Origin: Alphaproteobacteria bacterium
GTDB lineage: Bacteria; Pseudomonadota; Alphaproteobacteria; UBA828
Direction: 5' to 3'
Length of the DNA: 64,000 nt
NCBI GenBank assembly: GCA_965214705.1
Contig: CBDCCI010000002.1
Location: 2,784,001 to 2,848,000 of the forward strand
Below are positions 4,620 through 35,467 of this stretch, in pieces. The position numbers were made by a program, and so were the translations under genes. The notes beneath the pieces were generated by a model. It did not search any database, had not been told where the DNA came from, and worked only from the letters and a program-made list of their open reading frames with translations. Every line of letters begins with the position of its first letter. Position 1 is the first letter of the stretch.

Positions 4620-4625
4620 CGGCGC

Positions 4626-19906: not shown

Positions 19907-19931
19907 CCCGGACTTGCGACAGGAGGTCACC

Positions 19932-20318
19932 GTGTTGAAGACGTACAACCCGTCCGATATCGCGCCGCCATTCGGCCACTACGACCACGGCGTCGAAGCC
20001 GTCAACGTCTCGCGCCTGCTGCACGTCTCGGGGCAGATCGGTGTCGAGCCGGACGGCACCGTGCCCGAAGACGTGGCGGCGCAGATCGAATGCGTCTGGC
20101 GCAACATCGAGGCCGTGCTCGCCGAAGCGGGCATGACCACCGGCAACATCGTGCGGACCATCACATACATGCTGGACGCCGACTACGTGCCGCTGCTCGC
20201 TGCCGCGAGAAAGCAGCACCTCGGCGCCGACCACAAGGCCGCATCGAGCACCATCGTCGTGGCCGGTCTGGTGCGGCCCGAATGGAAGGTGGAGATCGAC
20301 GCTGTCGCCGTGGCCTGA
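19932..20318 (+). CDS. RidA/YjgF family protein
   Basis: LHVSGQIG and VEIDAVA; AGGAGG precedes GTG 19932. Confidence 0.88.
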   Translation: MLKTYNPSDIAPPFGHYDHGVEAVNVSRLLHVSGQIGVEPDGTVPEDVAAQIECVWRNIEAVLAEAGMTTGNIVRTITYMLDADYVPLLAAARKQHLGADHKAASSTIVVAGLVRPEWKVEIDAVAVA

Positions 20319-20345: not shown

Positions 20346-21107
20346 TCACGTCCTGATGATGTAGTGGAGCACGATATAGGGCGGCATGTTGTCGTGGGCC
20401 TGGCCGCCGCCCACGGCGGCGCTGCGGCCGAGGGTGGCGTCCAGGCTGCTGCCCTGCAGGCTGTACTTCTCGTCGAAGGCCTGCTGCGGCGAGTAGTCGG
20501 CGGCAACCTGCTCGGTTGCCGTCACCAGCGGGCCGATGCCGACGTTCTCGTCGGCCGCCAGGTGGTGGAAGTGCTCGGGCAGTTCGTCGACCGTGAGCGT
20601 GTGCTCTGCCGCGCCGCCGGTATCGCCAAAGGCATAGACATTGCCGGACGAAAGCACGAAGCGGTCGCGCAGGTCGGGAATGTTGAAGGTGGTCACGCCG
20701 TCGCCGGTACCGTAGCGGGTGCCGATGGCGGCGAACAGATTGGCGAAGGTGGTGCGGCTGATGGCGCTGCCGGTGCACCGGAACCAGCCGCTGGGCGAGC
20801 TCGCACCGGCGTTCAGCATGATCGTGCCGGGCGGCACGCCGGCCACCGGCGCCGGTTGCGGCGGAAGCTGCGCGCTCGGCACACGGCCGGAGCCGTCGAG
20901 CGAGGCGACGCCGCCTGCGACGCCACGGCCGAGCTCGGAATCCGGCACGCGGCGGCGGGAATCGAGCGCGGCCACGCCATCGACGTTGCCGCGCGCCTGA
21001 ATCATGGTCCTGATGTGCTGGAACACCTTGAAGAACTCCGCACGGGGCGGGCGGTCCTGATCCGAGTTGACGCCGGCAGTCGAAATATCGTCCGGGGGCC
21101 AGGGCAT
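20346..21107 (-). CDS. Tail fibre / tail-collar domain protein
   Basis: GVASLD repeats; collar motif PSGWFRCTG..LFAAIGTRYGTGDGVTTFNIPDLR; terminal HDNMPPYIVLHYII. Confidence 0.88.
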   Translation of the reverse strand: MPWPPDDISTAGVNSDQDRPPRAEFFKVFQHIRTMIQARGNVDGVAALDSRRRVPDSELGRGVAGGVASLDGSGRVPSAQLPPQPAPVAGVPPGTIMLNAGASSPSGWFRCTGSAISRTTFANLFAAIGTRYGTGDGVTTFNIPDLRDRFVLSSGNVYAFGDTGGAAEHTLTVDELPEHFHHLAADENVGIGPLVTATEQVAADYSPQQAFDEKYSLQGSSLDATLGRSAAVGGGQAHDNMPPYIVLHYIIRT

Positions 21108-21115
21108 GATGCCTC

Positions 21116-24100
21116 CTATGCTTCGACGCCGCGCACGACGACATCGACCACGGCGTCGGCCGGGTTGCCGGCGCCGTCATAGATGCGGATGCGCGTCGGG
21201 TTGTTCTTGCTCACGAGGGTCCAGGTCCAGCCGGCGCCCACCGATTGCAGGGTGATGTCGAGGTCGGTCACGAGGCCGAGATCGTGCGGCACGATGCGTC
21301 CGTCCGCCGCCGTGCCCTGCCAGGCCGAGGTATCGCGGTCGAGCAGCTTGCGCTCGGCCGCCGGCGCGTGCACCGACCAGCACACGTGATCGAGGCTGAG
21401 CACGATCGAGCCGTCGCCGGTGATCCGCCAGCGCACCTGCAGCCAGCGCGCGGCGACGGTGGTGCCGGCGGGATAGGCGGCCCATGCGGCGGCCCGGAGC
21501 GCGGCCTCCGTCGCGCCGGCGCGGACCTCGAAGACGCGATCGCCTGCGGTCTCGCCGGACCAGCGCAGTGCCACGTCGAAGGGGCCGCCAAGGTCAATCG
21601 GGTCTTCGGTGTAGATCAACTCCGTTCCCGCGTCCGCGCCGTTGCCGGCGCCCCACGACTGCCAGTCGGCCCAGGTGGTGAGATCGGCCCAGGTGTAGTC
21701 GCCGATGCCCTCAAGCGCGTCGGCGCCGTCTTGCGAGCGGCCTGCGCCGGCGATGGTGCCGGGCCAGCCGGTGGCGGCGGGGCAGCGCCAGAGCAGGGCG
21801 TCGCCGAGCCGCTGCGGGCCGAGCTCGGCCAGGATGCGCACCTCGTCCGATAGCCGCCCGCCCGCGTCGATCGCGCGGGCCGAGAATATCCACTCCCCCG
21901 GCGGCGGCTCGACGGTCTCAAGCGGAGACGCGGTGAGGTGGCCCCGGTGCAAGGGCATCATGGCCTGCCAAGTCGGTACCGCGGGCGTTCCGCCCGACGT
22001 CACCTGCGCGCCGGCGCTGGCCGGGGCGAAGCGGATCAGCACGCCGGCGAGGTCGATATCGTCCGGCGGGGTCCAGCGCAGGCGCCGGGTGCCGTCGCCG
22101 AGCACGTCGATCAGGAAGTTGGTGGGCGTGCCGGGGGGCGCGAGGGAGCCTGTGATCTCATGGCTTGCGGTGAACGGCGCGCCGGACGGCGCGGCCTCGG
22201 TGCCGGGCGTGACGGTGACGGTGAGCGAGCCGGTGGGCGGCGCCAGCCAATAGGCCGCCGTCTCGCCGTCGACCAGGCGGGCCACGACGCGCGGCGGCTC
22301 GCCGTTCACGGAAGCGCGCACCGCGCCGCCGCGCCAGTCGCCGGCGACGGTGAGCGCCGCCTCGATCTCGACCGCGAAGCCGGCGCCGACGCGCACCAGG
22401 GTCTCGGCAAGGGCGATATCGAGGACGCGGGGCGGGCGCGGGGTCAGGCCCGGGAAGGGCGCCGAGAGATCGGCGGTGGCGGCGTCGTAGTAGGCCGCCA
22501 CCTCGTCGATCGCGACGAAGCGGACGTGCCGATCGCCGCTCGGGCGCACGGCGATGATGCGCGCACGCGCCGGCAGCAGCGTGTCGTCGTAGAGCCGCCA
22601 CAGGATATCGCGCGCATTCGCGCCGTCGGCGCCGGGCGCGGCCGGCAAGGGCGTCGCCAGCACCAGCTCGGCCACGTCGCCGGCTTCTCCCGGCGGGCGC
22701 GAGACCGCCGAATGATGCAGCGTGCCGTCGAGCAGGCGCAGGAGCAGTGTCGCGCCTGCTCCGGTGCCGAGATCGACCGCGCGATCGAGGCGGACGCGAT
22801 CGGCGCTGCCCCCGGCGAGCCGGCCGGCGGCGCCGCCGTCGATCAGCGAATGCGTGATCGTCACCACGTCGCCGCGCGCGAGCGAAAGCCCCTCGGCCGC
22901 CATCTCCCATGTGAGCCGGCGGCGGTGGTAGACCTGGCGGGCGGCCTGGAGGTTGCAGGCCATCGCCGCCTGCGCGCGATCGGTGACGCCCAAGAGCGTG
23001 ATCGTCGCCGTGCTCGCGGGATGCGCGCCTACGTTCGGCACGGTGCGCCGCAGCGTGTTGTACTGCCAGTCGAGGCCGGGCTCGATATAGCGCACCGCGA
23101 CCTCCTCGGCCGCCGCGCCAGTGGCGTACTCCACACGGAACGAGCCGGCGACGATGTTGCCCGGCGTCACCAGCGCCGTCGCAGGCCGCCCGGCCTGATC
23201 CCAGATCACGCCGAGCCTGCCGGTCTGCCAGGTCACGGCAGCGCGCCCGCAGCGGACGATCAGAGTCAGCACCTCGGCATGGGAAAGCGCGCGGTCGAGC
23301 ACGAAGTCGCAGCGCAGCCCTTGCGCCTGGCACCAGGCGCCCCATTCGATCAGGGCCTCGTCGTCGATCCGGCCGGGCGCGAGGCCGAGGCCGGCGGCCA
23401 GGCGGCCGGCGATGCGCACGCCCCGCGCATACCAGCGGAACAGGTAAGCCGGATTGGACGAGGGCAGCGGCGCGGTCCAGCGCATACCATCCCACGTCGG
23501 CACCCTTTGGCGCACGATGGCGGAAAGGCGATCGAGGCGGCCGGTGAGCTGCCCGGAGGCGCGGATGCGCACGCCGAGCCGGGTCTGCCCCTCATAGTCG
23601 GCCTCGTCCGGCTGATAGGAGCGCAACGCCGTCCAGGCGAGATCGTCGAAAGTGCGCTCGTCGGTGCTGGGGTCGTTCGTGCGGCGCACGCGCACGGTCC
23701 AGTCTCGGGCGCTGCCCAGGTCATAGGCGAGGGTGCGCCTGAGCAGGGTTTGGCGATCGTGCGTGAGCGTGAGCGTGCGCCGCTCGACCGCCAGACCCGG
23801 CGCGTCCCACTCGATCTCGATCTCGACGCTATGGCCCTGAATCGCGCCGTCACGCTCGTTCACGCGAAAGAGGCGCCCGCCAAGGTCGATTCCGATGCGG
23901 TGCGTGCCGGGGGCGGTGGCGCGCTCGACGAAGGCGGTATCGTCCAGCGCCGCGCCGGCCTCGGTGTCCACATTGCCGGCGACCAGCGCGATGCGGCCTT
24001 GCGCGTCGCCGAACTCGGTTTGCACCTCCTCGAAGGCGTCGAGCGTCGTGTCGCCGATCTTGAGCGCGTCCACGTCGAGCGCGCCGAGGCCGAAGTTGAA

Positions 24101-24793
24101 TATCTGGTGCAAGAACTGATCGTCGCCGACGATCTCGGTGTATTCGGCCGCGCCGAGATCGGGAAAGACGCGGTGCTCGCCGAGCACAAGGAGCAAGGGC
24201 TCATAGGGGCGCGCGCGGTTGGCGCCGCCGGTGAGGCTGTAGACCGGCTCGGCGCGCGCGGCCTGCGCCTGGTCGGGCGTGGGCAGCGGCGCGAGGGCGT
24301 TGATGATGAGCCCGCCGACGATCGAGATGGCGGCGCCGATCGCAGCCTGGCCGAGCAGGCTTGAGGTAATCAGCGGCGGCACGAAGACGGAGGCGACGAT
24401 CACGGCGAGCTGGAGCAGGATGCGCAGCGGGTTCTTGTCGCCGCCGCCGTCGCCCGCTGTGGCGCGGAGTGTCACGATCTGCCCGTCGCCCAGCCGCGTG
24501 CTCGACCACGCCGCGCGCGGCACGGGCCGGCCGTCGATCGCGGTCTCTATAGAGGCGTCCGCGCTCAAGCAGCGAAGCGGTAGCGCGGACGCCCCAAGCG
24601 TGCACGCGCCGGGTAGCGCGTCCGCCACGAGATCGGCGAGGGTGGCGCCCGGCAGCACCACGGCCGGGTGCGTCTCGCGGCCTTCCGCCGTGAGCGGGTG
24701 CGGCCACATGTCGGTGGTTATCTTGGGCGCGCTCAAGCAGCGAAGCGGTAGCGCGCCAGAAGAGTCTGCGCCCGGCGACTGAGGGAACTTCAT
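21116..24793 (-). CDS. Tail tip/host-specificity protein (gpI+gpJ/TipJ-like)
   Basis: Ubiquitin-like N-terminal part, a hydrophobic stretch, GGANRARPYEP, SSNPA and FN3-like C-terminal region; 1225 aa; start uncertain. Confidence 0.85.
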   Translation of the reverse strand: MKFPQSPGADSSGALPLRCLSAPKITTDMWPHPLTAEGRETHPAVVLPGATLADLVADALPGACTLGASALPLRCLSADASIETAIDGRPVPRAAWSSTRLGDGQIVTLRATAGDGGGDKNPLRILLQLAVIVASVFVPPLITSSLLGQAAIGAAISIVGGLIINALAPLPTPDQAQAARAEPVYSLTGGANRARPYEPLLLVLGEHRVFPDLGAAEYTEIVGDDQFLHQIFNFGLGALDVDALKIGDTTLDAFEEVQTEFGDAQGRIALVAGNVDTEAGAALDDTAFVERATAPGTHRIGIDLGGRLFRVNERDGAIQGHSVEIEIEWDAPGLAVERRTLTLTHDRQTLLRRTLAYDLGSARDWTVRVRRTNDPSTDERTFDDLAWTALRSYQPDEADYEGQTRLGVRIRASGQLTGRLDRLSAIVRQRVPTWDGMRWTAPLPSSNPAYLFRWYARGVRIAGRLAAGLGLAPGRIDDEALIEWGAWCQAQGLRCDFVLDRALSHAEVLTLIVRCGRAAVTWQTGRLGVIWDQAGRPATALVTPGNIVAGSFRVEYATGAAAEEVAVRYIEPGLDWQYNTLRRTVPNVGAHPASTATITLLGVTDRAQAAMACNLQAARQVYHRRRLTWEMAAEGLSLARGDVVTITHSLIDGGAAGRLAGGSADRVRLDRAVDLGTGAGATLLLRLLDGTLHHSAVSRPPGEAGDVAELVLATPLPAAPGADGANARDILWRLYDDTLLPARARIIAVRPSGDRHVRFVAIDEVAAYYDAATADLSAPFPGLTPRPPRVLDIALAETLVRVGAGFAVEIEAALTVAGDWRGGAVRASVNGEPPRVVARLVDGETAAYWLAPPTGSLTVTVTPGTEAAPSGAPFTASHEITGSLAPPGTPTNFLIDVLGDGTRRLRWTPPDDIDLAGVLIRFAPASAGAQVTSGGTPAVPTWQAMMPLHRGHLTASPLETVEPPPGEWIFSARAIDAGGRLSDEVRILAELGPQRLGDALLWRCPAATGWPGTIAGAGRSQDGADALEGIGDYTWADLTTWADWQSWGAGNGADAGTELIYTEDPIDLGGPFDVALRWSGETAGDRVFEVRAGATEAALRAAAWAAYPAGTTVAARWLQVRWRITGDGSIVLSLDHVCWSVHAPAAERKLLDRDTSAWQGTAADGRIVPHDLGLVTDLDITLQSVGAGWTWTLVSKNNPTRIRIYDGAGNPADAVVDVVVRGVEA
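24554..24593. repeat. Short palindromic repeat, copy 1 (12-bp stem)
   Basis: GGCGTCCGCGCT-CAAGCAGCGAAGCGGT-AGCGCGGACGCC. Related copies lie at 24726-24757, 24795-24826 (inverted) and 27108-27133 (inverted). Confidence 0.8.
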
Positions 24794-25251
24794 GTCCGCC
24801 CTATCGCTTCGCTACTTGAGGGCGGAAGCCACCGATAAACCCCCTCAAGCTCAAGTGCGCGGAGCGCGAGGTCGCGGATGGGATGCAGGATCGAGCCGGC
24901 GCCGTCCTGGCAATGTAGGACGTGCGCCTCGCCGCCCACGTCGGCCTATAGCCCGAGGTGATAGCGGCGCAGCCGCCGCGCCCCGCGCGCGTACATGAGC
25001 ACGCCGTCGCCGTCCTGCGGCGCGTCCGTCGGCTCGGCATAGTCGGCGCGCAGGGCGGCGATCTGCCGGTCCCACGCGCGCACGCTTGTCGCGCGGGCAC
25101 GCGCGCCGTCGTCGGGTTCGTGCGCCGGGAGCGCGAGCTCGCGCCCGAACTGTTGGCGCAGCACCGCCACAACGAAGTCGGCGCAGTCGTGCTCGCCGGC
25201 AATCCAGGGCCGCCCGATGTAGGCCTCGGCCCAATGTTGAAGTCCCGTCAT
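24790..25251 (-). pseudogene. NlpC/P60-like tail assembly protein (gpK-like) with in-frame TAG at 24946-24948
   Basis: YIGRPW..HDCADFV, then HLGL*ADVGGEAHVLH...EGVYRW in the same frame, ending at a TGA that overlaps the next ATG. Confidence 0.78.
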
Positions 25252-25290
25252 GGCGCCAGTCCAGCGCCGGGCGCGCGGACTCTATTCATT

Positions 25291-25377
25291 TCCCTCAATC
25301 GCCGGGCGCTCGCTCCGCTCGCTTGGCTCCGCGCCTGCGGCGCGCGGCGCTGGCGCGCCGTCCGGGCCTGCGGCCCG
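25291..25377. repeat. Structured intergenic repeat with an inverted copy at 27565-27635
   Basis: Shared exact blocks TCCCTCAATCGC (12 bp) and CGCGCCGTCCGGGCCTGCGGCCCG (24 bp). Confidence 0.8.
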
Positions 25378-25411
25378 GCATCGGTGATCCAAAGACGTGC
25401 GGCTGCCGCGC

Positions 25412-27082
25412 TCAAAACAACCCCGGCGAGGTTTGGGGATCGTGGCGCATGACCACGGCGGCGCGACCGAGCAGCGGGTCGAAGCCGAGCCGCGCGGTCA
25501 CGCGCTCGGCGTCCACTTGCACGCCGGCCACGTCCATCGTGAGCTCCCATTCGACCTCGGGGGCCGAGATGTCGAGCACCTGCATGACGCGCACCGTGGC
25601 GCCGGCGCCGCCGCCCGCCGCTTCCACCCATTGCGTGAGCGCGCGGCCCACGTTGTCGATCGCAAGCTCGGCCTGCGGCGCCTGTCCTTCCACGTCATCG
25701 GCGAGGCGCGCGTCGAAGCGGAGCGCGACGTAGCGGTTGCCTTCGATCGTGCGGTCCTCGGTATCGTTGACGACGCGCACCGGGTCCGGCACCGCCGGGT
25801 GGCGTATCTCAAGCGCGGTGAGCACGCGGCGCTCGGGCGCGCTTTCGCGGATCGTGCGGGCGAAGTGTTCGGAGGCCGGTGGCACGCGGTGGACACGGGC
25901 CGAGACCTGCGGCACGCCGCTTTCGGCAAGGCCACGCACGCGCAGGTGTGCGATGCGCCTGAGCCGGGCGAAGGCCAGCGGCCCGCCGGCGTCGGCCCGG
26001 CCGGCGATGGCATGGGCGTCGATGCGGCGCACGCGGGCGCTCGCCTCGGGCGGGCCTGCGGCGGCGACGCCGCCCGGCGTGTGGATCGTGGGCGTGACGC
26101 GCGCCACCGTGGCGGCGACCTCGGCTGCGCCGGCGGCAGCACTGCCCCGCACTGCGATCGCGGTGATAGCCGGGCGCGCGAACGCCAGGATGAAGCTCTG
26201 CCCATTGTCGATGTCGTTGACGATCGTCAGATCGTCGCCGCCGATCGGGCCGAACTGGACGAAGTGGCCGCCCGCATTCGAGAACGTCGAGGCGGGAAAG
26301 CTGCCGAGGCCGTCGACGGTCTGGACATAGACCGTGAGATCGGCGCCGGCGCCGGCGCTGCCGAAGTGGTCGGCGAGCACGAGCGGCGCGTTGTCGTTAA
26401 TCATGAGGAACGCGCCGTTGCGCCGCCTGATCCGGGTGATGGCGGCCTCGCTCGCGCCGATGCCGAGCTCGCCGTCGAGCAGCGCGCCCACGGTGCCGCG
26501 CGGCGGAACGGCGAAGATGGTGCCGCCCGAGCCGGAGCCGGCGCGGATCAGCGCGAGCAGGTCGAGCTCAAGCCCGGCCGCGTCGAAGTCCGCGAGCGTG
26601 AGCTGCGGCACCCGCGCCACCGTGGCGGCGGCCTCCGCCGCGCCGGCCTCGGCCACGCCCGTTATCGCGGTGGAGGGCTCCACGCCGTCGTCGATGGTGA
26701 AGGTGAAGTTGCCCGCCCGCTCGGCAAACCACGCGGTCATCGCGGTGTTGTTGTCCGGCGTCCAGAAGTAGGGCTCGCTCGGGTCCGCGAAGTCGTTGTC
26801 CGCGTGGCCGGGGCCTTTCAACGTGAAGGTGGCACCGTCGGTGCCGGCGAAGGTGAAGGCCTCGTCGGCGGTTTCGAGCGCGCCGGTGAACTCGGGCCGG
26901 GCGTCGAGCGGCTCGTCGGTCTCGGTCGCCGAAAGCCGAATGCGAACGCTGATGCCGACGCGCTGGATATGGCGCAAATAGGCGACGCCCCCGCCCACGA
27001 CGAAGGCAGGGTCGATCAGGACGGCGCCCTGCCATCCGGTTTCGACCTGAAGGCCGGCAAGTTGGAGGACCTGCCGCGTCAT
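25412..27082 (-). CDS. DUF1833-like tail hub protein with long N-terminal extension
   Basis: C-terminal LEIRHP..PVRVVND..AELAIDNVGRALTQWVE..PQTSPGLF; lies between the Dit-like and NlpC genes. Confidence 0.75.
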   Translation of the reverse strand: MTRQVLQLAGLQVETGWQGAVLIDPAFVVGGGVAYLRHIQRVGISVRIRLSATETDEPLDARPEFTGALETADEAFTFAGTDGATFTLKGPGHADNDFADPSEPYFWTPDNNTAMTAWFAERAGNFTFTIDDGVEPSTAITGVAEAGAAEAAATVARVPQLTLADFDAAGLELDLLALIRAGSGSGGTIFAVPPRGTVGALLDGELGIGASEAAITRIRRRNGAFLMINDNAPLVLADHFGSAGAGADLTVYVQTVDGLGSFPASTFSNAGGHFVQFGPIGGDDLTIVNDIDNGQSFILAFARPAITAIAVRGSAAAGAAEVAATVARVTPTIHTPGGVAAAGPPEASARVRRIDAHAIAGRADAGGPLAFARLRRIAHLRVRGLAESGVPQVSARVHRVPPASEHFARTIRESAPERRVLTALEIRHPAVPDPVRVVNDTEDRTIEGNRYVALRFDARLADDVEGQAPQAELAIDNVGRALTQWVEAAGGGAGATVRVMQVLDISAPEVEWELTMDVAGVQVDAERVTARLGFDPLLGRAAVVMRHDPQTSPGLF

Positions 27083-27132
27083 GCGCCGCCCCGCCGCCCT
27101 CGTTCGCGCCCTACCGCTGCGCTACTTGAGGG

Positions 27133-27528
27133 CTAGATCGTGCCGGCGGGAATGCGCACGACGACGGCGCCCGCCGCCACGCGCAGGATGTCGTCGGTGG
27201 TCTGTTGCGAGATCGTGGCCGGGTTGTTGGCCGCGTCGAGAAGCGGACCCCAGGCGCGCACGGTGCCGCCGGCGGCGGCCGACATGATGGCGAAGTGCGT
27301 GGCGTTCTGGACCAGGCCGGTCGGCGCGAAGTCCACCGCCGCGAGGTTCTTCACCTCGCCGGCCGGGTCGGCGTTCACGCGGCCGAGGTTGATGGCGACC
27401 CGGCCGGCGGCCGCGATCAGGTTGTTGCCCGCCGACGTGGGATCGGCCGTGGCGAGCGCGAGATAATCGTCGCCGGCATTCGCGATGGCGAGCGCCGCCC
27501 GGTTCTGTTCCGCCGCAGAGATAGGCAT
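27133..27528 (-). CDS. Small phage tail-associated protein
   Basis: YLALATADP..N..VDF..THFAIM.AAAGG pattern resembling small virion proteins; tail-module context. Confidence 0.6.
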   Translation of the reverse strand: MPISAAEQNRAALAIANAGDDYLALATADPTSAGNNLIAAAGRVAINLGRVNADPAGEVKNLAAVDFAPTGLVQNATHFAIMSAAAGGTVRAWGPLLDAANNPATISQQTTDDILRVAAGAVVVRIPAGTI

Positions 27529-27647
27529 GGTATCTGGACTCCTTCCGTTGAACATGAGCGGGATCGGGCCGCAGGCCCGGACGGCGCGACTGCGTCGCGC
27601 GGCCACGCGCGCAGGCGCGCGATGCGATTGAGGGAGATGAAGAGTCT

Positions 27648-28022
27648 TCACAGTCTGACGCCCTCAAGGGTGAGCGTGGCGTCCCACGAGCGCCGGCCGT
27701 CGCCGCCGACGTGCGCGGTGTACTCGATCCCGCCGGCGCCGCCGCGCACGCGGGCTTGATGCAGGGCGCCGGTCTCGGGCGCGGTCCAGGCGAACCAGCC
27801 GTGCGCGCAGTCGCCGGCCCACGTGCGGAAGCGCTCATAGTCGTCGTCGTTCGCGATCAGCACGGTAAGGCGCAGCGCGGTGAGCGCGGATGCAAAGCGC
27901 CGCTCCTGGCGGACGAAGCCGTCGTCGAAGGGCGTGCGCGCGACGTTGGGATCGTCGGCGACGCCGTAGCCGTCCGCCTCGACTGCGACGTAATCGGGCC
28001 ACACCAGGCCGCCAGCACTCAT
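27648..28022 (-). CDS. Distal tail protein (Dit/gpM-like)
   Basis: WP....GY..RTPFDDG..RQERRF..WFAW pattern; directly after the tape measure gene. Confidence 0.7.
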   Translation of the reverse strand: MSAGGLVWPDYVAVEADGYGVADDPNVARTPFDDGFVRQERRFASALTALRLTVLIANDDDYERFRTWAGDCAHGWFAWTAPETGALHQARVRGGAGGIEYTAHVGGDGRRSWDATLTLEGVRL

Positions 28023-28828
28023 GCCACTGCGTCCCTCAGTCCGAAGCGGCGCGCGATCGCCTGCGACGCCGGCCCGCCGGCGTCGAGGTCTTGGGTAACG
28101 ATGGTGACGATCAGGCCGCGCGGATCGAGCCGCACCTCGCGGCCCACCTCGCGCTGCGGCGTGCCGCGATTCTCGAAATTGATCTCGATCGAGGGCGCCC
28201 CGCGCGGCACGGTCGCGCCGGAGGCGCGCGGCAAGATAACCTCGCCGCGCTCTGCGATGATCGGCACCTCGCCCGGCCTGAGCCCCGCAATCCCGCCGCC
28301 ATGAAAGCGGGGCGCGAGGGCGAAGACACCGGCCGGCACGGTGCGCGAGACGCCGCCCGAGGCGCCGACCAAGCCGCCCTGGTGGCCGACGCCGGCCTGC
28401 AAGCGGCCAAACAGGTCGGCATCGGGAGCGCTCCCCCCGCCGAAGGCGCCAAACAGGGAATTGGCGAGCGGCTGAACGATAAAGCGGCGCGTCGCGATTC
28501 GGGTGAGATCGGCGATCACGGAATCGACGAAGCCGGAAAACGAGAGCTTGCCCGTGGTGACGAAGCGCGTGAGCGCGGACTCCATTGCGCCGAAGGCGCT
28601 CTCGGCCGCGGTCCTGGCCTGTTCCAGGGTGCTCTCGCTCTCTCGACCCAGGCTGCCGAGCGCCACCGCAAACGTCTGTGTCGAGCCCGCGGCGCCTGAC
28701 AGCGCGGCACCGGCCTTGTCGCCCCGTTGCGCGGTATCCCCGAGGGACCGATTGAGCGCGCCGATCCCCTGCAGCGCCTCTTGCATGTCTGCGCGGACAC
28801 GGAGCGCGAGCTCGAGATCACCGGGCAT
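28019..28828 (-). CDS. Very short tape measure protein
   Basis: N-terminal DLELALRVRAD; lambda-type C-terminal FVTTGKLSF..SVIADL; PRFHGGG..EVPII..GEVIL; follows the tail chaperone. Confidence 0.82.
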   Translation of the reverse strand: MPGDLELALRVRADMQEALQGIGALNRSLGDTAQRGDKAGAALSGAAGSTQTFAVALGSLGRESESTLEQARTAAESAFGAMESALTRFVTTGKLSFSGFVDSVIADLTRIATRRFIVQPLANSLFGAFGGGSAPDADLFGRLQAGVGHQGGLVGASGGVSRTVPAGVFALAPRFHGGGIAGLRPGEVPIIAERGEVILPRASGATVPRGAPSIEINFENRGTPQREVGREVRLDPRGLIVTIVTQDLDAGGPASQAIARRFGLRDAVA

Positions 28829-28899
28829 TAATTGTATCCCTCAATCACCGGACAAAATTTCCGTCGCCGCGCGGAAGAAGAGGACGATCTGCCGCCACG

Positions 28900-29397
28900 T
28901 CAGACGCTCGCTGAGATCGAAGTGGCCGCGTCCGTGGCCGGCGCGGACGAGGGCGTCGAGCACGCGGTAGAGCGGCACGGGCTCTCCGCCCGTGCTTTCG
29001 CCCGTGCTGCTGACTGGGCCACCACGCGGCGCAAAAAAAATCCGCCGTTTGCCGCCCACATCGCGTCCGAGAGGGCGCGGCCGTCGGCATCGCTCAGGCG
29101 GGCAAGCCACGCCGCATCCCGGCTGCTGGCACGAGCGGCAAGCTCCAGCCAGAGAGCGGCGTGGGATGCAAGCGCACTCTCGATCGCCAGGGCGTCCGGT
29201 CCCTCGTCCTCGGCCGCGTCGGGCACCAGCCCCGCCAACGCCGCGATCAACGGCCGCGCAATAGCCGTCGCCTCCAGCCCTTCGCGGAAGCGGTACTCAC
29301 GCACGGTGAGCGAAACTTGCTCGCCCGTATCCGGGTCGTGCACCGTCACATCACGATCCGGGAACAGCACCGCGAGCTCGTCGCCCACTCCCGTCAT
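28900..29397 (-). CDS. Tail assembly chaperone (G); -1 frameshift extension (GT) to 28841
   Basis: LAVLFPDR..LTVREYRF.EGL..WAANGGFFLRR; sits between the tail tube and tape measure genes. Confidence 0.78.
   Translation of the reverse strand: MTGVGDELAVLFPDRDVTVHDPDTGEQVSLTVREYRFREGLEATAIARPLIAALAGLVPDAAEDEGPDALAIESALASHAALWLELAARASSRDAAWLARLSDADGRALSDAMWAANGGFFLRRVVAQSAARAKARAESPCRSTACSTPSSAPATDAATSISASV
29032..29040 (-). other. Programmed -1 frameshift slippery site T TTT TTG
   Basis: GGA TTT TTT TTG on the minus strand; the -1 frame gives LYRVLDALVRAGH..LTWRQIVLFFRAA and ends just before the tape measure RBS. Confidence 0.65.
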
Positions 29398-30284
29398 GTG
29401 GACTGCCCGTCGATGTAGAGCGCGGGCTGCCCGCCGCCTGACTCCAGCATCGAGACGGCGAGGCGGATCTGCTGCTCGGACGAGCGCCCGTCGAGCAGGG
29501 TCAGCCCGCCGGCGGGCTGGATCGAGCAGCGCGGCGCGTAGATGTTCCGCCCCCGGCCCTCGGCGGCATCCTCGATGTAGCGAAACGCGCCGATGACCTG
29601 GCCGAGCGCGCCCTGCACCTGGTCCCGCGCCGTATCGTCCGGCGTATAGTCGATCCCGACCCCGGTACCATCCGCGATGCCGGCCTTCGGCTCATGCAGC
29701 GCGTGGTCTGCCGGCAGCCAGAAGATGCGGGCGCGGGCGTAGTCCACGATGTACTGGCCGGTCTGCTCGGTCTCGCTGGCACCGTCGCCGAAGCGCTCGG
29801 CCGCGATCGCCTGCGCCGCCGTCACCGGTGTCTGTGCCGTCGATGCGACGGTCACGGCACTGATCGCCGCCGCCTTGTTAACTGGCGTATCCAGCCTGAG
29901 AATGCCGGCGGGCCGCGCGGCGCCGCCAAGCTGATACCAGCGGCCAGGCTGGAAGGTCGCAGGCTCGCCCGAGACCTGCGCGGCGGCTCCGAGCCGCCTC
30001 ACCGCGCCAACCGCGAAGAGAGCCAGGTTCTCCAGGCTGATGTCGTGGAGGGTGAGCGTTACCGTGCGGCTGACGCTGCGGGCGATGCGCGCGAGCTCCC
30101 GCGCGACCGGCCCCGAGCCGGAGAAGACCGTGGTCTCCTCGGTGGTGATCTCCAGCGCGGCCCCTACGGCGTCGCCGAGATAGCGCTCGCCCGTCGGTAC
30201 GCCGCCCTCGTGGAGGTCCAGATAGACCTCACCCGCCCCGATCACGATGTTGTCGGTGCGCTTGTCGATGTTTCGCGCGGTCAT
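29394..30284 (-). CDS. Major tail tube protein (non-contractile)
   Basis: IGAGEVYL..ERYLGD..LTLHDISLENLALF; no sheath gene in the operon. Confidence 0.78.
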   Translation of the reverse strand: MTARNIDKRTDNIVIGAGEVYLDLHEGGVPTGERYLGDAVGAALEITTEETTVFSGSGPVARELARIARSVSRTVTLTLHDISLENLALFAVGAVRRLGAAAQVSGEPATFQPGRWYQLGGAARPAGILRLDTPVNKAAAISAVTVASTAQTPVTAAQAIAAERFGDGASETEQTGQYIVDYARARIFWLPADHALHEPKAGIADGTGVGIDYTPDDTARDQVQGALGQVIGAFRYIEDAAEGRGRNIYAPRCSIQPAGGLTLLDGRSSEQQIRLAVSMLESGGGQPALYIDGQST

Positions 30285-30296
30285 TCGCGTATCCCC

Positions 30297-30773
30297 CTAT
30301 TCCGCTTCCACCACGCCGGCGCGGGCGATGCGGCGGATTTCGTATTCGTCGAGCCATTGCAGGCGCCCGTCCTCCAGCGAGACCAACCGCCCGCGGCGGA
30401 AGGACAGCACCTCCCGCTGGCCAGGCGGTGTCCAGCCGGCGAGCGCCTGCCTGGCCTGCGCAAGCAGGGCAGAGAGGCGCCCGCGCCCGCGCGCGCCGCT
30501 GCGGTCGTTGGGTGCCGCCACCATGATCGAGACGCCGATGCGGACGACGTGCTGCACCGGCGGGTTCTCGACCCGGCGCGTCGTGCTCTCCTCCGCTTCG
30601 TCGGAGATGGGCAGGACCAGCGCCGCCGGCGTCTTGGGCCAGGCGGTGAGCGCGGCCGTATCCAGGGCGCTGAGCACGGCGGCGAAGACGGGCGCACGGT
30701 CGTCGGCCACGAGCGCGGTGAGGCGTTCGGCCATGGCGTCGGCGAGGTGCATTTCCAGCGCGGCGAGGGTCAT
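30297..30773 (-). CDS. Tail terminator-like protein (Mu gp37-like position)
   Basis: TPAALV..ARQALAGWTP..G.L......LQWLDEY pattern; position in the operon. Confidence 0.65.
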   Translation of the reverse strand: MTLAALEMHLADAMAERLTALVADDRAPVFAAVLSALDTAALTAWPKTPAALVLPISDEAEESTTRRVENPPVQHVVRIGVSIMVAAPNDRSGARGRGRLSALLAQARQALAGWTPPGQREVLSFRRGRLVSLEDGRLQWLDEYEIRRIARAGVVEAE

Positions 30774-31261
30774 GTCCCCGCCCTCTCAAGCGCGCGCGAG
30801 ACGATGCCCAGGATGTTGGTCCGGTCGTGCTCGTCGATGCCGAGATAGGCGCGCGCCGGGAGCGTCACCCTGCGGCCCCTGCCCGCGCGCCCGCCGAACT
30901 GGTGGATGGCGGCGTAGACGACGTTCGAGCCGACTTCGACCGCGTGGCCGCCGTCGGTGACCGTGTGTGCGATGGAGCCTCGCAGCTGGCCAGTATCGGT
31001 GAGGGTGCGGCCGCCGTCCGCGATGGCGCGGGCGCTTTTCAGCCAGGGCTTGCCGTCGGGCCCGCGCTCACGCTCGAAGCGTCGCAGCGTTGAGGCGACG
31101 AGGTAGCGCCCGATCTGGTCCATGGCAGCGGAAGGGTTGGCAAGCGCCGCTGCCACACGCTCGAGCCCTGCGTCGAGCGCCGCGCCCTCGACTTCCACGC
31201 TGATCCGTTGGGCCACCATCATCGAGCCCTCATGCAGCGAAGCGGTAGGGCCATCATTCAA
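30770..31261 (-). CDS. Phage virion morphogenesis protein (Mu gpG / tail completion S family)
   Basis: RFERERGPDGKPW, LTDTGQLRGSI, VGSNVVYAAIHQFGG and LPARAYLGI; true start may be slightly downstream. Confidence 0.9.
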   Translation of the reverse strand: MNDGPTASLHEGSMMVAQRISVEVEGAALDAGLERVAAALANPSAAMDQIGRYLVASTLRRFERERGPDGKPWLKSARAIADGGRTLTDTGQLRGSIAHTVTDGGHAVEVGSNVVYAAIHQFGGRAGRGRRVTLPARAYLGIDEHDRTNILGIVSRALERAGT

Positions 31262-31659
31262 AGCCCCGCCAGGGTGTCGGGTGTCAGGGACGGCGTGGGG
31301 CCGCCGCGCGCCGCCCTGTCGTGCCGGGGCACCGGGTCGCCGGCGGCGTCGAGAAGTGCCTCCTCACCGGACGCGAGGCGGACAAGGGCCGCCTGCGCCC
31401 GCTCGGCTCTCGCGGTCACCTCCCCCGGCGAGACGTCGTCGTAGAGTGCGCGCCGGGCGAGATCGCAGGCGATTGCCGCGAGCCGCGGCCAGGAGCCCCC
31501 GCCTAGGGGCAGGCGATAGGCGGAGGCGAGCGCGCCGTCGATCTCGGCCGCCGCATCCGCGAGCGCGGCCTCGATCCGCCCGGTCTGCATCCCGGCAAGA
31601 TCCAGCGCCTCCTCCGCTCCGAAGCGCGCCTCCATGTCCGCGCGGGTGGCGTAGGTCAT
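31258..31659 (-). CDS. Mu gp36-like (DUF1320) head-tail adaptor
   Basis: MTYATRADMEARFG, ALADAAAEIDG.L...YRLPL and ACDLARRALY. Confidence 0.88.
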   Translation of the reverse strand: MTYATRADMEARFGAEEALDLAGMQTGRIEAALADAAAEIDGALASAYRLPLGGGSWPRLAAIACDLARRALYDDVSPGEVTARAERAQAALVRLASGEEALLDAAGDPVPRHDRAARGGPTPSLTPDTLAGL

Positions 31660-32648
31660 GTTTCCGCGCGCCTCCCGGCGCGACCCCGCATCTCCCGCAC
31701 TTGGGTGGGAGTGAGAGAGACCTCGAAACGATCTCGGCGGCGATGAACCAAGCGGACGGAGACGCCGTTGATGGTCTCGCGCCGGCCGTCCAGCGCGGGC
31801 TCGCCGAACGCGCGCAGCGTGCCACCACGCCTGCCGCAATCCACGAGGACGAGCCGGCGGACGAACGCCGGTGCGGTCTCGGGCGTCGGCTCCAGGAATG
31901 TCTTTCCAAAGCGGCGCCGCATTTCCCGCCAGGCGACGGTCAGGCCCGCCTCGGGTACCGGCCGAGCCGTCGCTTCGTCCCCCTCTTCCTCCACCTCACC
32001 GTCGGGGCCGAGTCCGGCCCCGGTCAGTGCGCGACGACGCTCGCGCTCATAGACCGCGATGCGTGCCTCCAGCGCGGCCCTCGCCCGTTTGGCCTCCTCC
32101 GGCGTCTCGGTCACGCCGGCGTCGGCCATGGCCTGTTGGCGCCGCGTTTCCTCCGCCCGCTCGCGCTCGATCGCCTGCGTCATGCGGGCGGCGTATTCGC
32201 GGGCGCTGGCCTGGCGGGCGGCAAGCGCGGCCTGCTCGGCGGCCGCGCTCATTCGCTCGCACGCCTCCCGCACCGCCTCCGAGACAGGCGGCTGCGGATA
32301 GTCGATGGTCTCGCGTGGCGTGTAGGCCGGCACCGCCTTGCGCGCGCGGGCGGCGTAGTCGAGCACCGCGAGCAGGGTGACGCTCGGTGTGCCGATGACG
32401 CGCCGCTCGGCGCCCTGCAGCGCGCGCATCTCGGGCACGATCCGCTCGTAGAGGGTGCGGCTCATGGCGTCGCCACGTAGCCACCCGGTCCACGAATCGC
32501 GGATTTGGCAATAGGTGTGGACCATGTTCAGCAGGCGCTCGGCATGCCAGCAGACCTTGCGCTCAGCGTCCGACTGGCGCGGGTCCGCTGGCGAATAGCC
32601 GAGGCCGCACAGGTGGTCCGGTGGGCGAGCGGAAGGGGGTCGCGCCAT
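31656..32648 (-). CDS. Hypothetical coiled-coil-rich protein (alternative start 32465)
   Basis: Fills the gap between capsid and adaptor genes; its stop overlaps the adaptor ATG; no motif recognised. Confidence 0.6.
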   Translation of the reverse strand: MARPPSARPPDHLCGLGYSPADPRQSDAERKVCWHAERLLNMVHTYCQIRDSWTGWLRGDAMSRTLYERIVPEMRALQGAERRVIGTPSVTLLAVLDYAARARKAVPAYTPRETIDYPQPPVSEAVREACERMSAAAEQAALAARQASAREYAARMTQAIERERAEETRRQQAMADAGVTETPEEAKRARAALEARIAVYERERRRALTGAGLGPDGEVEEEGDEATARPVPEAGLTVAWREMRRRFGKTFLEPTPETAPAFVRRLVLVDCGRRGGTLRAFGEPALDGRRETINGVSVRLVHRRRDRFEVSLTPTQVREMRGRAGRRAET

Positions 32649-32651
32649 CGG

Positions 32652-33626
32652 CTAGGACACCGCGTTGCGCCAGAGGTAGCCGGCGCGGCTGTAGGCCACC
32701 AGCTCCTTGACGCACTCGCTGACCTTGACGACGGTCGAGCCACGGTTGACGCCGCGCGCCGGCTCCTCGTAGGTGCCGACCTGCAACCCGCCGAGGGCAT
32801 CGGCGGTCCAGCAGAACTTGGGCATCCGGTCGCGGGACGACGCTATGTCGCGGCGCACGTGGATGGCGCAGGCGTGCTTGCCCCAGAGGCGGGCGAAGCT
32901 GTCCTCCTGGCCGCGCTTGGCGCTCTGATACCAGGCCATGCCGACCAGCACGCGGTCGACCTCGAAGAGCTCGGCCACCGCCTCCTTCACGACGATGCCG
33001 GAGGCCTGGTCGCCGGCGCCGGTGGCAGCCACCGCTTCCACGATCTTCGGATGCTGGCGGAGCGCGGTCCACACCTTTTGGCCGAAAACCAGCACGTTGG
33101 GGCGGACGAGAGGCACGTCGAGAGCCTCCAGGATCGCCTTTCGCGGGTTCGAGCTGGCGTGGCTCCACTGGGCGTTGCCGTTGAGCGTGGCGGAGTGGCC
33201 CGCCGCGTAGCTGGACGCGGTTGTCACCAAGTCGGCCACGCGCCGCTCGCGCGCGAGCTTCACCAGTTCGGCGGTGGAGATTGCGGCCTGCTCCAGCGGG
33301 TCGTAGGCGACCTCCTGAGCGCGCGCTTCCTCGATGTCGCGGGAGGGGACCGGATCTTCCAGGCCGTAATCGACGACGCTCGCGGTGGTGTTTGTGGCTC
33401 CGAACTCGACCTGATTGAGGCGCCCGGCTCGGGAGGCCCGCACGTCCGGGATGGTGAGCAGGTCCTCCTCGGTGAGCGTGGTGTAGGTGAACTTGTAGCC
33501 GGTGCGGACGCGCGGGCAGACCTCGTCGGCGATCAGGCCGGACGGCATCGCCGCCTGCGCGATCTGCGTGAGCCGGGTCTGGACCTCGTAGGGGCCAGAA
33601 GCGAGCTGGGTGGTGTGCAGATCCAT
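32652..33626 (-). CDS. Major capsid protein
   Basis: 324 aa after the protease and decoration genes; LIADEVCPRV, RPNVLVFGQKVW..LRQHPKI and WGKH motifs; GAGGGA RBS. Confidence 0.85.
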   Translation of the reverse strand: MDLHTTQLASGPYEVQTRLTQIAQAAMPSGLIADEVCPRVRTGYKFTYTTLTEEDLLTIPDVRASRAGRLNQVEFGATNTTASVVDYGLEDPVPSRDIEEARAQEVAYDPLEQAAISTAELVKLARERRVADLVTTASSYAAGHSATLNGNAQWSHASSNPRKAILEALDVPLVRPNVLVFGQKVWTALRQHPKIVEAVAATGAGDQASGIVVKEAVAELFEVDRVLVGMAWYQSAKRGQEDSFARLWGKHACAIHVRRDIASSRDRMPKFCWTADALGGLQVGTYEEPARGVNRGSTVVKVSECVKELVAYSRAGYLWRNAVS

Positions 33627-33636
33627 GGTGATTCCC

Positions 33637-33993
33637 TCAGTGAAGGCCGGGGGCGAGCAGCACCTGGCCGATGTCGCCGGCGGCGCCGGAAACCTCGGCA
33701 ATGCCGATGACGCGGTTGCCGTCGGCGGCGGTTACCGCCTTGCCGTCGGAGTCCGCCGTGAGCAGCGCGCCCCGCGCGACGTTGGCGCCGTATTCGATGT
33801 CGGCGATACCGGTGCGGGCGATCTCGACACGCCCACCCGAGGCCGCCGACGCCCGGCCGGAGACCCCGACGTGGGCGTCTGCAGCGGCGGCGGACTGCAC
33901 CACCTTGCCGTCGCCGTCGCCGTACTTGACGATTCGGTGGGGGGCCACGGCACCGCCGGCGTCCACCGCCCGCCACATCAGCACATGACTCAT
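33637..33993 (-). CDS. Capsid decoration/cement protein (DUF2190-like)
   Basis: Gly/Ala-rich 118 aa with GIADIEYG..V.RG.LLTAD.DGKAV..VIG.A. Confidence 0.8.
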   Translation of the reverse strand: MSHVLMWRAVDAGGAVAPHRIVKYGDGDGKVVQSAAAADAHVGVSGRASAASGGRVEIARTGIADIEYGANVARGALLTADSDGKAVTAADGNRVIGIAEVSGAAGDIGQVLLAPGLH

Positions 33994-35072
33994 TGGGTTC
34001 CTCCTTCGATGCCGAGCCCGCGCTTGGCGCGCGCCCGGTCAACGGCCTCGGCGGGGGTGAGCGACATGCCCCTCCCCGCTTCCGCCGCCATCAGCGCGCG
34101 GGCCTCGGCAGCGATCCGCTCGCTGTCGTTTCCCGCATCCTCGTGAGTGCCCGCTTGACCCGACGCGCCCGGCACCAGGCCACCCGCGAGCGTCCGGTAA
34201 TCCACGCGCCTGGGCAGGCCCTCGATGAACCGTTCCAGAATGGCGGCGGGCCGCATCCGCTCCTCGCCGCCGGAAGCCGACGCGAAGGCGATGGTGGCGT
34301 GCCCGCCTGCGGCGCCCTCGTCGTCGGTGTTCTGTTCGTCGCCGAGCGCGGCGAGCAGCGCAACAAGCGCCGCCCGTTCCGCAGGTAGGACCCGCCCCGC
34401 TTCCACATGGGGCACGATCGCCGCCTCGGCCGCCCGCCGCCTGTCATCGGCCGCTGCTGCCGCCTCGCGCGCGAGCAACGCGGTCTCTCGTGCAGCCAGC
34501 GCGGCTTCGCGGTCGGCCAACTCCACGCGATCACCGTCCTCCTCGTCGCACTCGGGCGCAGAGAGGGCGCGATCTCGGTCGTCTACCTCGTCCTCTTCCG
34601 CCTCGGCAGCAAGGGGAGAATCGGGGTGTGCGTCGGATGATTGCTGCGAAGCCTCGGCGGCGCTGTCGACGAAGGCGATCACCGTCTCCGGCGCGGAGGC
34701 AAAACACGTCGGTACGAGCCCCGGCACCGCTGGCGCACGGCCACCGAGGAAGCCGAGATGGCGCAGCGTGTCGCCCTGGAGCGCGATCGAGCGGCCGGCG
34801 TAGTGCCCGGCCTCGACCGCCTCGCGGAAGGCAGGCGCGATGTCGCGCAGCGTCGCCTGCAGCCGGTCGCCGACGCGGCGCAGGCTCTCGATCCAGGCGT
34901 AGGCTGGCGCGTCGGCTTCCGGGTGACCCACGACGACGGGCGCAGGGTCGGCGGCGGCGTGCTCGGCGACGATGCGATCGAGGCGGGCCTCGTCGATCGC
35001 CACCTCGCGGCCGGCGATGTCGCGCCAAGTGCCGGCACGGCAGACGTCGATCCAGCCGTCGAGGGCGCTCAT
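33990..35072 (-). CDS. Mu-like head protease/scaffold
   Basis: WIDVCRAGTW.D..G, APVVVGHP..DAPAYAWI and LRHLGFLG...PAVPGL, followed by an acidic/coiled scaffold region. Confidence 0.85.
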   Translation of the reverse strand: MSALDGWIDVCRAGTWRDIAGREVAIDEARLDRIVAEHAAADPAPVVVGHPEADAPAYAWIESLRRVGDRLQATLRDIAPAFREAVEAGHYAGRSIALQGDTLRHLGFLGGRAPAVPGLVPTCFASAPETVIAFVDSAAEASQQSSDAHPDSPLAAEAEEDEVDDRDRALSAPECDEEDGDRVELADREAALAARETALLAREAAAAADDRRRAAEAAIVPHVEAGRVLPAERAALVALLAALGDEQNTDDEGAAGGHATIAFASASGGEERMRPAAILERFIEGLPRRVDYRTLAGGLVPGASGQAGTHEDAGNDSERIAAEARALMAAEAGRGMSLTPAEAVDRARAKRGLGIEGGTQ

Positions 35073-35467
35073 CGCGCGCCTCCGGTCGCGCCCAAGGCTC
35101 GCGGGATTGAAAGAGTGTCGAAGGAGCGCGGGAGCGAGAGAGTGTCGCAGGTGCGCGGTTTCAGGACCCGGGGGTCAGAGGGTGAGTGAGCGTTCATGGC
35201 GCGGACAATGCCGCATGCCGGCGGCCCCGTGCACCGCACCATGGTCCGAAGTGTTAGATTCTTTTCCCCTCACTCGCAGAGCGCTCGAAACCGCCAGCTG
35301 CGCACGATTTAACGGTGGCCTTCCCAGACAAAAACAGTGCTGCTGTCGATCGTTGTAAGACGTGCGCAACCGGCCTTATGACCGAGCGCGGGACAAGATT
35401 GAGACGCTTCGAGCCGCCCTGTTTTCCAGCCCAGCGGCCCCGTAAAACGGGCCCCGCCTGTGCCCTT

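Follow-up and report, generated by a model that had tools for sequence, protein, structure and literature searches.

The subject of this study is a group of phage-derived genes in the genome designated G000, a 7.92-Mb assembly of three contigs from an uncultured genus whose other members are recorded as Alphaproteobacteria or Rhodospirillales. The stretch analysed, called the window below, comprises 64,000 nucleotides (nt) of contig C3 (C3:2784001-2848000), and its positions 20346-35072 carry, on the minus strand, a tightly packed operon for a Mu/B3-type head and a short, lambda-like siphovirus tail. Comparison with 20 other species of the same genus (G001-G020) establishes that the phage gene set to which this operon belongs is dispersed, vertically inherited and constrained, and that its parts are tied together by a common leader.

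Nineteen candidate open reading frames (ORFs) are present on the minus strand of the operon, 12 of which match Pfam families and 15 of which match PHROGs; the four without a match are a 330-amino-acid (aa) ORF (31656-32648), the extension of the tail assembly chaperone and two overlapping frames. The genes are arranged from head to tail as follows, with expectation values (E) of the family matches and, for some of them, the median ratio of nonsynonymous to synonymous substitution rates (dN/dS):

33990-35072, minus strand: head maturation protease/scaffold (Mu gpI-like), 360 aa; phrog_976, E 3e-44, no Pfam match; dN/dS 0.30
33637-33993, minus strand: cement/decoration protein, 118 aa; PF09956, phrog_673; dN/dS 0.15
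32652-33701, minus strand: major capsid (major head) protein; phrog_1005, E 9e-70; dN/dS 0.10
31656-32648, minus strand: conserved 330-aa protein; no Pfam or PHROG match; dN/dS 0.30
31258-31839, minus strand: head-tail adaptor (Mu gp36); PF07030, E 7e-17, match from residue 63
30770-31261, minus strand: virion morphogenesis/tail completion protein (Mu gpG type, Phage_tail_S); PF05069, E 7e-33
30297-30773, minus strand: tail terminator; PF23840, E 4e-20; dN/dS 0.14
29394-30284, minus strand: major tail (tube) protein; phrog_807, E 3e-30; dN/dS 0.21
28900-29397, minus strand: tail assembly chaperone G, with a -1 frame extension GT to 28841; DUF6631/phrog_1442
28019-28828, minus strand: short tape measure, 269 aa; PF09718
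27648-28022, minus strand: distal tail protein, 124 aa; phrog_384; dN/dS 0.23
27133-27651, minus strand: tail-tip protein, 172 aa; PF23140, phrog_240
25412-27082, minus strand: tail hub, 556 aa, with a C-terminal DUF1833; PF08875, E 5e-26; lambda gpL-like by position
24790-25251, minus strand: NlpC/P60-like peptidase gene (lambda gpK position); weak DUF6950 match; in-frame TAG at 24946-24948
21116-24793, minus strand: central tail fibre/tip attachment protein J (TipJ), 1225 aa; phrog_31, E 2e-110, PF24801, PF13550; dN/dS 0.41
20346-21107, minus strand: collar-domain tail fibre, 253 aa; PF07484; dN/dS 0.57

A sequence-only reading of the window had proposed this gene order and content, and it was correct at every point checked. 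The start of the capsid gene is uncertain, its first ~30 codons overlapping the cement gene, and the true start of the adaptor gene is probably located further downstream than 31839. The chaperone gene contains a canonical -1 slippery heptamer (T_TTT_TTG, at 29032-29038) and its -1 frame is open. The 330-aa protein, which is absent in G003, has invariant Cys and His among its first 50 residues, followed by a long coiled coil and, at the C-terminus, a beta domain; its AlphaFold2 model is of moderate quality (predicted local distance difference test score, 68.9), and searches of the ESM Atlas and of BFVD gave no usable hit and no match at E <= 0.001, respectively. The tape measure aligns solely with the C-terminal parts of the 900-1500-aa tape measures in PHROGs, and it is full length in 12/12 relatives that retain tail genes. 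At the tip of the tail, only the C-terminal domain of the hub is retained in G003, and in G005 and G002 the collar-domain fibre is replaced or was not found. A short repeat lies in the spacer that separates the hub and NlpC genes (window 25279-25400); it is a dispersed element like the repetitive extragenic palindromes, because the contig depth summed over it in public runs is 20- to 100-fold that of the adjoining sequence.

The cluster is rich in guanine and cytosine (GC), with 71.9% against 66.8% for the genome; compared with 1577 equal-length windows, it ranks within the top 2.1%. The raised GC of the system amounts to 71.9-72.7%. All the cluster proteins are single copy in G000, with the exception of the tape measure, which has a 294-aa paralogue (PF09718, 40% identity) beside a YafQ toxin gene and host genes (C1:581442-584011; L004:15443-18012). 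This paralogue was considered as the mark of a second cluster and rejected, given that downstream of the gene (C1:581442-582326), which lies among host genes, there are only three small ORFs; none of the three has a Pfam match, and the third has a weak match to phrog_13335, a family of unknown function.

The sequence-only reading had also reported that the window lacks portal and terminase genes and had placed the packaging genes elsewhere in the genome, if they exist at all. Both statements hold: neither gene was found among the 47 flanking ORFs scanned, and a search of the whole genome for the Mu portal family (Portal_Mu, PF06074) returned a single match in 7.92 Mb, outside the window, at C3:1236980-1238218, that is, 1.57 Mb from the operon. 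Directly upstream of this portal gene lies the gene for a 470-aa large terminase (TerL, Terminase_6C), and the terL-portal pair (C3:1236980-1239769) is lodged between the genes for pyruvate carboxylase (pyc) and a MetE-like protein. TerL and the portal align over residues 26-416 and 24-401, respectively, with the proteins of the functional B3-like phage PM105. Other phage genes stand alone among host genes, including nine matches to the gp27 family, which resembles small terminases (TerS), and a DUF5675 gene. A second Mu-type portal or capsid gene was not found in G000, nor was any match to the Mor family of activators (PF08765) in its whole genome. Four of the portal loci in other species (L023, L025, L026 and L029, of G014, G008, G006 and G005) contain a duplicate of the last 26 pyc codons, separated by ~40 nt from the stop codon of the portal gene and by ~650 nt from the genuine pyc end, which suggests an insertion that copied the 3' end of the gene.

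The element that joins these scattered genes lies upstream of the protease gene, where a unit of ~65 nt is the sole intergenic block conserved across species. Two features are recognised there:

35190-35247, minus strand: shared leader element; near-palindromic core GGACCATGGTGCGGTGCAC, GC hairpin, and an ATG located 47 nt beyond the 15-nt core
35069-35197, minus strand: short upstream reading frame of 42 codons, opened by the leader ATG and closed by a TGA that overlaps the protease ATG (ATGA)

The 15-nt core is found ~100 nt upstream of the protease gene in 14/15 head-tail loci scanned, and upstream of 14/14 orthologous portal genes, including those that stand alone and those that follow an RTX-repeat gene; terL is preceded by a degenerate copy, which is exact in G018. 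The stop of the upstream frame overlaps the protease start in 13/13 species evaluated, even though the length of the frame varies from 18 to 58 codons. This analysis required a main ORF of at least 300 aa, which excluded the protease locus of G020, and the N-terminus of the protease is missing in G012 and G006. The corresponding frame before the portal gene is 14-20 codons long and stops on the portal ATG in 13/15 loci; the exceptions are G002, with an in-frame fusion, and G020, with a broken portal gene. In other places the leader ATG is itself the start of a gene. This is the case for the stand-alone gp27 genes (PF11985, phrog_426 small terminase), 23/25 of which have the core upstream among the copies checked, and for the DUF5675/phrog_1501 gene. 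The latter is present in 14/20 relatives and in 0/3 of the species that lack the element, it is located upstream of gp27 in a Mu-like prophage of G002 and of gp27-terL in G003, and its protein has no sequence relative in the PDB.

G000 contains 43 copies of the leader, with the ATG 45-47 nt after the core in 39 of them, and many copies lie directly after the 3' end of a gene. A 19-nt motif, searched with <=2 mismatches, is present in 10-74 copies per genome in the 18 genomes that have phage genes and is absent from G011, G015 and G016, and the reversed motif, used as a control, occurs in none of the genomes. The same 18 genomes contain gp27, with 1-15 copies in 17/20 relatives; these genomes are kin, and the co-occurrence of motif, gp27 and phage genes amounts to one or two events rather than 18. 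That the leader marks a regulon made up of phage genes only was considered and rejected: among the 14 genes scanned downstream of leader copies, 11 belong to ordinary cellular families, mostly metabolic (BKACE, aldehyde dehydrogenase, PyrB and others), and the remaining three are an integrase, a DDE transposase and one gene without a family match. With regard to structure, Rfam gave no family match in window 34900-35600 at E up to 1, single leader sequences fold no better than shuffled ones (z -0.6 and +0.6), RNAalifold found no consensus structure in an alignment of the 43 copies, and the changes in the inner hairpin appear compensatory only on inspection by eye. A 0.9-kb unit made up of leader and gp27 is repeated in G000 at 84-93% nt identity, each time among different host genes (C2:151033-151836; C1:2454797, 124608, 2967112 and 549860; C3:2005429). 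The unit appears to multiply within a lineage, because close gp27 paralogues cluster within G000 in the tree.

An orthologue of the capsid (88-99% aa identity) is present in 16/20 other species of the genus and in 0/40 genomes outside it; orthologues of the portal (84-95% aa identity) are present in 15/20, together with two broken copies, and TerL in 16/20. None of the phage genes was found in G011, G015 and G016. The head-tail locus was examined in 15 species, and its surroundings are shared to a large extent: the fibre end adjoins ridA or atpH in 10/15 loci, and the protease end adjoins a 96-aa ORF, a short-chain dehydrogenase/reductase (SDR) gene or hisD in 10/15. Among 14 orthologous portal loci, nine have the order metE-like, terL, portal, pyc. 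The synteny that the sequence-only reading had named as a check is thus conserved at both places. Capsid and portal lie on different contigs or >1 Mb apart in the complete or near-complete relatives G003, G004, G005, G008, G009 and G013, and 110 kb apart in G017. In G005, G004 and G013 an RTX-repeat gene lies between terL and portal. In G003, G018 and G002 the portal gene stands alone among other host genes, and the distance between terL and the head-tail site is 2-12 kb (in G002 and G003, terL and the protease gene are separated by 2-9 kb), an arrangement that looks like an earlier stage of the break-up.

Trees built from concatenated proteins of the host and of the element agree in their well-supported clades; they share {G000, G006, G017}, {G019, G020} and {G004, G013}, as well as the larger clade {G019, G020} + {G004, G013} + G007, and they differ in the placement of G008 and G012. 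With these two differences, the vertical phylogeny that the earlier reading had named as a check is borne out in the main clades, and the gene set is inherited vertically with the host.

Selection was evaluated by pairwise Nei-Gojobori estimates against G000 for 18 element genes and seven host neighbours; these comparisons share G000 or short taxon lists and are not independent of each other. A value below 1 had been named as a check in the same reading, and all 18 element genes have one, with median dN/dS from 0.10 to 0.57; the host neighbours range from 0.06 to 0.18. The lowest values correspond to the capsid (0.10) and to the terminator, portal (0.145) and cement (0.14-0.15); they are followed by TerL (0.205), tube and chaperone at ~0.2, by the protease, adaptor, gpG and 330-aa protein at ~0.3, and by the tape measure and tail tip at 0.35-0.57. 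Median dS is 0.26-0.65 for the element and 0.24-0.70 for the host neighbours. On terminal branches (dS 0.05-0.20), three-taxon estimates give a dN/dS of 0.13-0.36 for the element against 0.04-0.13 for the host, and of 0.22-0.23 for the branch of G000 itself.

The flanks of the operon belong to the host, and their members are present as the sequence-only reading described them (ridA, a small gene and an adjacent IS66 element):

19914-20318, plus strand: ridA, host gene beside the fibre end, with atpHAGDC on the low side
35468-35758, minus strand: conserved 96-aa ORF upstream of the operon; no Pfam or PHROG match; dN/dS 0.15; adjoins the protease gene in 10/15 relatives
35958-38197, minus strand: two-gene insertion of the IS66 family of insertion sequences (IS); transposase at 35958-37532 (PF03050) and a 222-aa methyltransferase-like ORF (phrog_56 reported for the insertion)

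On the high side the order is 96-aa ORF, IS66-family element, SDR gene and hisD, followed by other host genes as far as priA. An ORF at 19259-19948 was rejected as a gene, its dN/dS being 1.8. No transposase, repressor or replication gene of the element was found at any of the loci (window flanks and portal locus), and the scan of the window flanks revealed no integrase beside the cluster. The IS66-family insertion had been cited as support for a truncated prophage. In G000 it sits between the 96-aa ORF and the SDR gene, it is absent from that place in relatives, and the relatives without it also have no portal or terminase at the head-tail site. It is a later insertion that lies outside the system; in G012 its two genes are found again, within the protease gene, which they disrupt. 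The ~29 kb between atpH and priA in G000 (window 18995-48282) comprise the cluster, ridA, the SDR gene, hisD, an efflux protein gene and others. This stretch is absent from the three congeners without phage genes (G011, G015, G016), in which priA lies directly beside atpH and atpH is more distant, and therefore the whole of it was inserted or rearranged in the element-bearing lineage. Elsewhere in the window, a tyrosine recombinase and an IS91-type Y2 transposase are located next to smpB (3579-5867); an ORF with the same Pfam scores at C1:1440924-1441964 identifies this as a repeated mobile element.

Taken together, these observations tilt the balance, if only slightly, towards the interpretation that the window contains the head-tail operon of a domesticated, multi-locus particle system that resembles gene transfer agents (GTAs). 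The best explanation of its origin would be descent from a Mu/B3-type transposable phage that entered the ancestor of most of the genus. The sequence-only reading, which had proposed a domesticated particle of transposable-phage origin with its packaging genes elsewhere, is largely upheld by the portal and TerL site, the synteny, the trees and the dN/dS values. From the gene content and the separation of the genes by 1.5 Mb, we infer that particles carrying host DNA may be produced.

The working of such a system can be envisaged as follows. A common signal would act on the shared leader and switch on all the units together, and the portal gene and the protease operon would each be translationally coupled to a short upstream reading frame. 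The portal, protease/scaffold, capsid and cement proteins would build a Mu-type head, and TerL together with the gp27 protein would fill it by a headful mechanism. Since more than 1.5 Mb separate the genes and neither replication nor transposition takes place, the packaged DNA would be that of the host. The adaptor, gpG, terminator, tube, G/GT chaperone and 269-aa tape measure would form a short, non-contractile tail with a lambda-like tip and a length of ~40 nm. As a rule of thumb, tail length amounts to 0.15 nm per tape-measure residue. It is from the packaging of host DNA and the assembly of the particle that a GTA-like working would therefore follow.

Several facts weigh against this interpretation. 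Neither particle, packaged DNA nor transcript has been seen, no RNA run being listed for window 25400-35300; moreover, all genomes of the genus are metagenome bins, and G000 has a contamination of 8.7%. The Phage_Mu_F family (gpF, PF04233) has no match in the whole genome, no holin or endolysin was identified, and other copies of the leader precede ordinary metabolic genes. The putative TerS of known GTAs lack a DNA-binding domain, according to an excerpt of PMC11841831, whereas gp27 retains the N-terminal region that aligns with phage TerS. The in-frame amber codon in the NlpC gene is real and unique to G000 among the genomes compared: contigs from four public runs of two studies span the site with no alternative letter, and 9/9 relatives have an intact frame (132-153 aa, by alignment to G000) with W at that position. 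But for this codon, the frame would finish as ATGA on the TipJ start; the amber probably impairs the tail tip of G000. The sequence-only reading had cited this codon in support of a truncated prophage.

Lesions are not limited to G000. In a locus-by-locus examination of 16 relatives, from which G010 (62% complete) was left out, gross deletions were found in six (G004, G006, G012, G013, G020 and G018), and G018 retains only terL, portal, TipJ and fibres. In G008 terL is split by a 5.2-kb transposon (L025:5858-10227), which has genes for Toprim, AAA_25 and AAA_22 proteins as well as for an rve integrase, and in G009 the terminator gene contains a 4.4-kb insert. G007 (67% complete) has no terL beside the portal. 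Seven relatives (G019, G005, G001, G017, G014, G002 and G003) show no lesion in the assembled part, some loci running off their contigs; G003 is counted among them though it lacks the 330-aa gene, and in G019 all 18 genes are full length. The genes that survive in broken clusters have a dN/dS as low as those in intact ones, which may reflect selection on single genes rather than on the whole particle, and fits very recent loss as well.

Such lesions bring to mind an old defective prophage in slow decay, whose pieces were scattered by rearrangement and whose conservation is due to recent loss, chance or linkage, with no particle being made. This explanation is unlikely but has to be taken seriously: the gross deletions in 6/16 relatives, the single insertions in two, the reduced set of G018, the amber of G000 and the failure to find gpF and lysis genes speak for it, and the position of terL 2-9 kb from the protease gene in G002 and G003 is as expected from the stepwise break-up of a prophage. 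It is at odds with dN/dS values below 1 in all 18 genes at dS equal to that of the host, also on terminal branches. With terminal-branch dS at 0.05-0.2, unconstrained genes of 1 kb would be expected to carry several stops or frameshifts, yet G019 has 18/18 genes at full length. The leader points in the same direction, since the overlap of its reading frame is retained despite length changes from 18 to 58 codons and the lone portals have kept it.

Another possibility is that the genes are maintained for a use other than transfer, either as a kit that interferes with Mu-like phages or is completed by them (defence or piracy), or as single proteins (portal, TerL, gp27) co-opted separately. Mu-like prophages do occur in the genus (in G002, with a capsid of 78% identity, and in G012, with three portal copies at 52%) and could supply gpF, lysis genes and regulators; gp27 reaches 1-15 copies per genome, which a plain GTA does not need, and the genes in broken clusters stay constrained. 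Quite unlikely as this alternative is, it would account for these facts. Nevertheless, the G002 prophage does not carry the leader core, G000 has no resident helper in the form of a second Mu-type portal or capsid, and the set that most species conserve is the complete one, from head to fibre. As for a complete and still mobile phage with missed genes, it is extremely improbable even though not every ORF of the genome was examined, given genes 1.57 Mb apart, host flanks shared across species (a synteny that already contradicts it), cluster proteins each in single copy, no Mor activator or gpF, and Mu-transpos_C matches that comprise six copies of a ~460-aa open frame, which by size and copy number alone would be IS-like.

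A bolder version of the GTA-like interpretation, and a very unlikely one, would make this a sixth independent kind of GTA, derived from a Mu-type phage and organised as a dispersed regulon. The TerS paralogues, TerL, the portal, DUF5675 and the head-tail operon would each have a portable leader (10-74 copies per genome) composed of palindromic core, fixed ATG and coupled short frame, and the core would be the site bound by gp27, from which packaging would start at many chromosomal places.

To our knowledge, about five independent origins of GTAs have been recognised, all of them through experiments on cultured organisms. If the GTA-like interpretation is true, transposable phages would represent a new origin of GTAs, in an uncultured, Rhodospirillales-like genus known from metagenomes, and the system would be a case of a prophage that was dismantled while its pieces remained functional units, each with a common leader and a coupled upstream frame. 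The leader offers a concrete, testable handle on the joint control of scattered phage genes, and the patchy decay across species constitutes a natural series for studying when such systems persist or vanish. A full-text literature search found no Mu-derived GTA.

Among phages, the best matches are the B3/D3112-like transposable siphophages of Pseudomonas (vB_PaeS_PM105, JBD67), with identities of 39% for the capsid, 39% for the portal and 33% for TerL, as anticipated from the transposable-siphophage ancestry claimed in the sequence-only reading. The order of protease, scaffold/cement, capsid, adaptor, terminator, tube, chaperone and tape measure is common to both. In PM105, TerS, TerL, portal, gpF and gpG form a row before the protease, and the phage has a tape measure of 1283 aa besides its lysis and early genes; the system considered here, in contrast, lacks gpF, has gpG after the adaptor and a tape measure of 269 aa, and its packaging genes are scattered. 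The transposase A/B, repressor, Gam, late activator, lysis and gpF genes that a functional Mu/B3-like phage possesses are absent from the window and from the portal locus. The earlier reading had named complete, near-identical prophages with a full-length tape measure as grounds for discarding the proposal, and no such prophage was found. The nearest true phage found is the Mu-like myophage prophage of G002 (C1:174-214 kb), with identities of 78% for the capsid, 80% for the cement, 70% for the portal and 67% for TerL. It shares gp27 and the phrog_1501/DUF5675 gene, located upstream of TerS; unlike the cluster, this rearranged prophage has Gam, gpF, sheath, baseplate and a 754-aa tape measure, and it is devoid of the leader core.

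RcGTA has its terminase and portal genes inside the main cluster, and its protease and capsid are of the HK97 type. The present candidate system resembles it in having a structural head-tail cluster devoid of genes for replication or integration, a short tape measure that ends in a lambda C-terminal domain, and a tip with a hub, an NlpC-type peptidase and a large J-like protein. It differs in its Mu-type portal (PF06074), its Mu/B3-type protease/scaffold and capsid (phrog_1005) and the location of TerL and portal at another locus. The GTA_TIM domain (PF13547) has no match in the genome, the Caulobacter control being found, and because of this absence the system is not a member of the RcGTA family. 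Further similarities concern organisation and inheritance: excerpts of two papers describe RcGTA genes at other loci (PMC5026251) and vertical inheritance with raised GC for genes of the RcGTA type (PMC7360931), as is the case here. Tailocins are also a poor fit, for genes of the capsid, cement, protease, portal and terminase are present and constrained, so that the cluster belongs neither with RcGTA nor with tailocins, as the sequence-only reading had maintained. The same applies to capsid-forming satellites of the type of the phage-inducible chromosomal islands, since the cluster has its own complete tail module and is not adjoined by any integrase or replication gene.

Several features that characterise GTAs in general are recognised. 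The operon and the terL-portal pair are 1.57 Mb apart in G000, a distance at which the genes cannot travel in one particle; inheritance is vertical and under purifying selection, judging from the flanks, the clades and a dN/dS of 0.10-0.57; and replication, integration or lysogeny genes of the element are missing from the loci, with no match to Mor in the genome. The candidate system would resemble VSH-1 (Brachyspira), BaGTA, Dd1 and VTA, which are phage-derived particle systems unable to transfer themselves and unrelated to it in ancestry. An excerpt of a review (PMC11841831) names RcGTA, BaGTA, Dd1 and VTA as GTAs, includes VSH-1 among its references, and cites a description of VSH-1 as having a divided genome.

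Domesticated prophages provide a last term of comparison. Bobay and co-workers reportedly described, in 2014, defective enterobacterial prophages that persist as vertically inherited remnants under purifying selection. In contrast to these, the genes considered here comprise a full head-to-fibre set across a genus, dispersed over several loci and joined by a shared leader.

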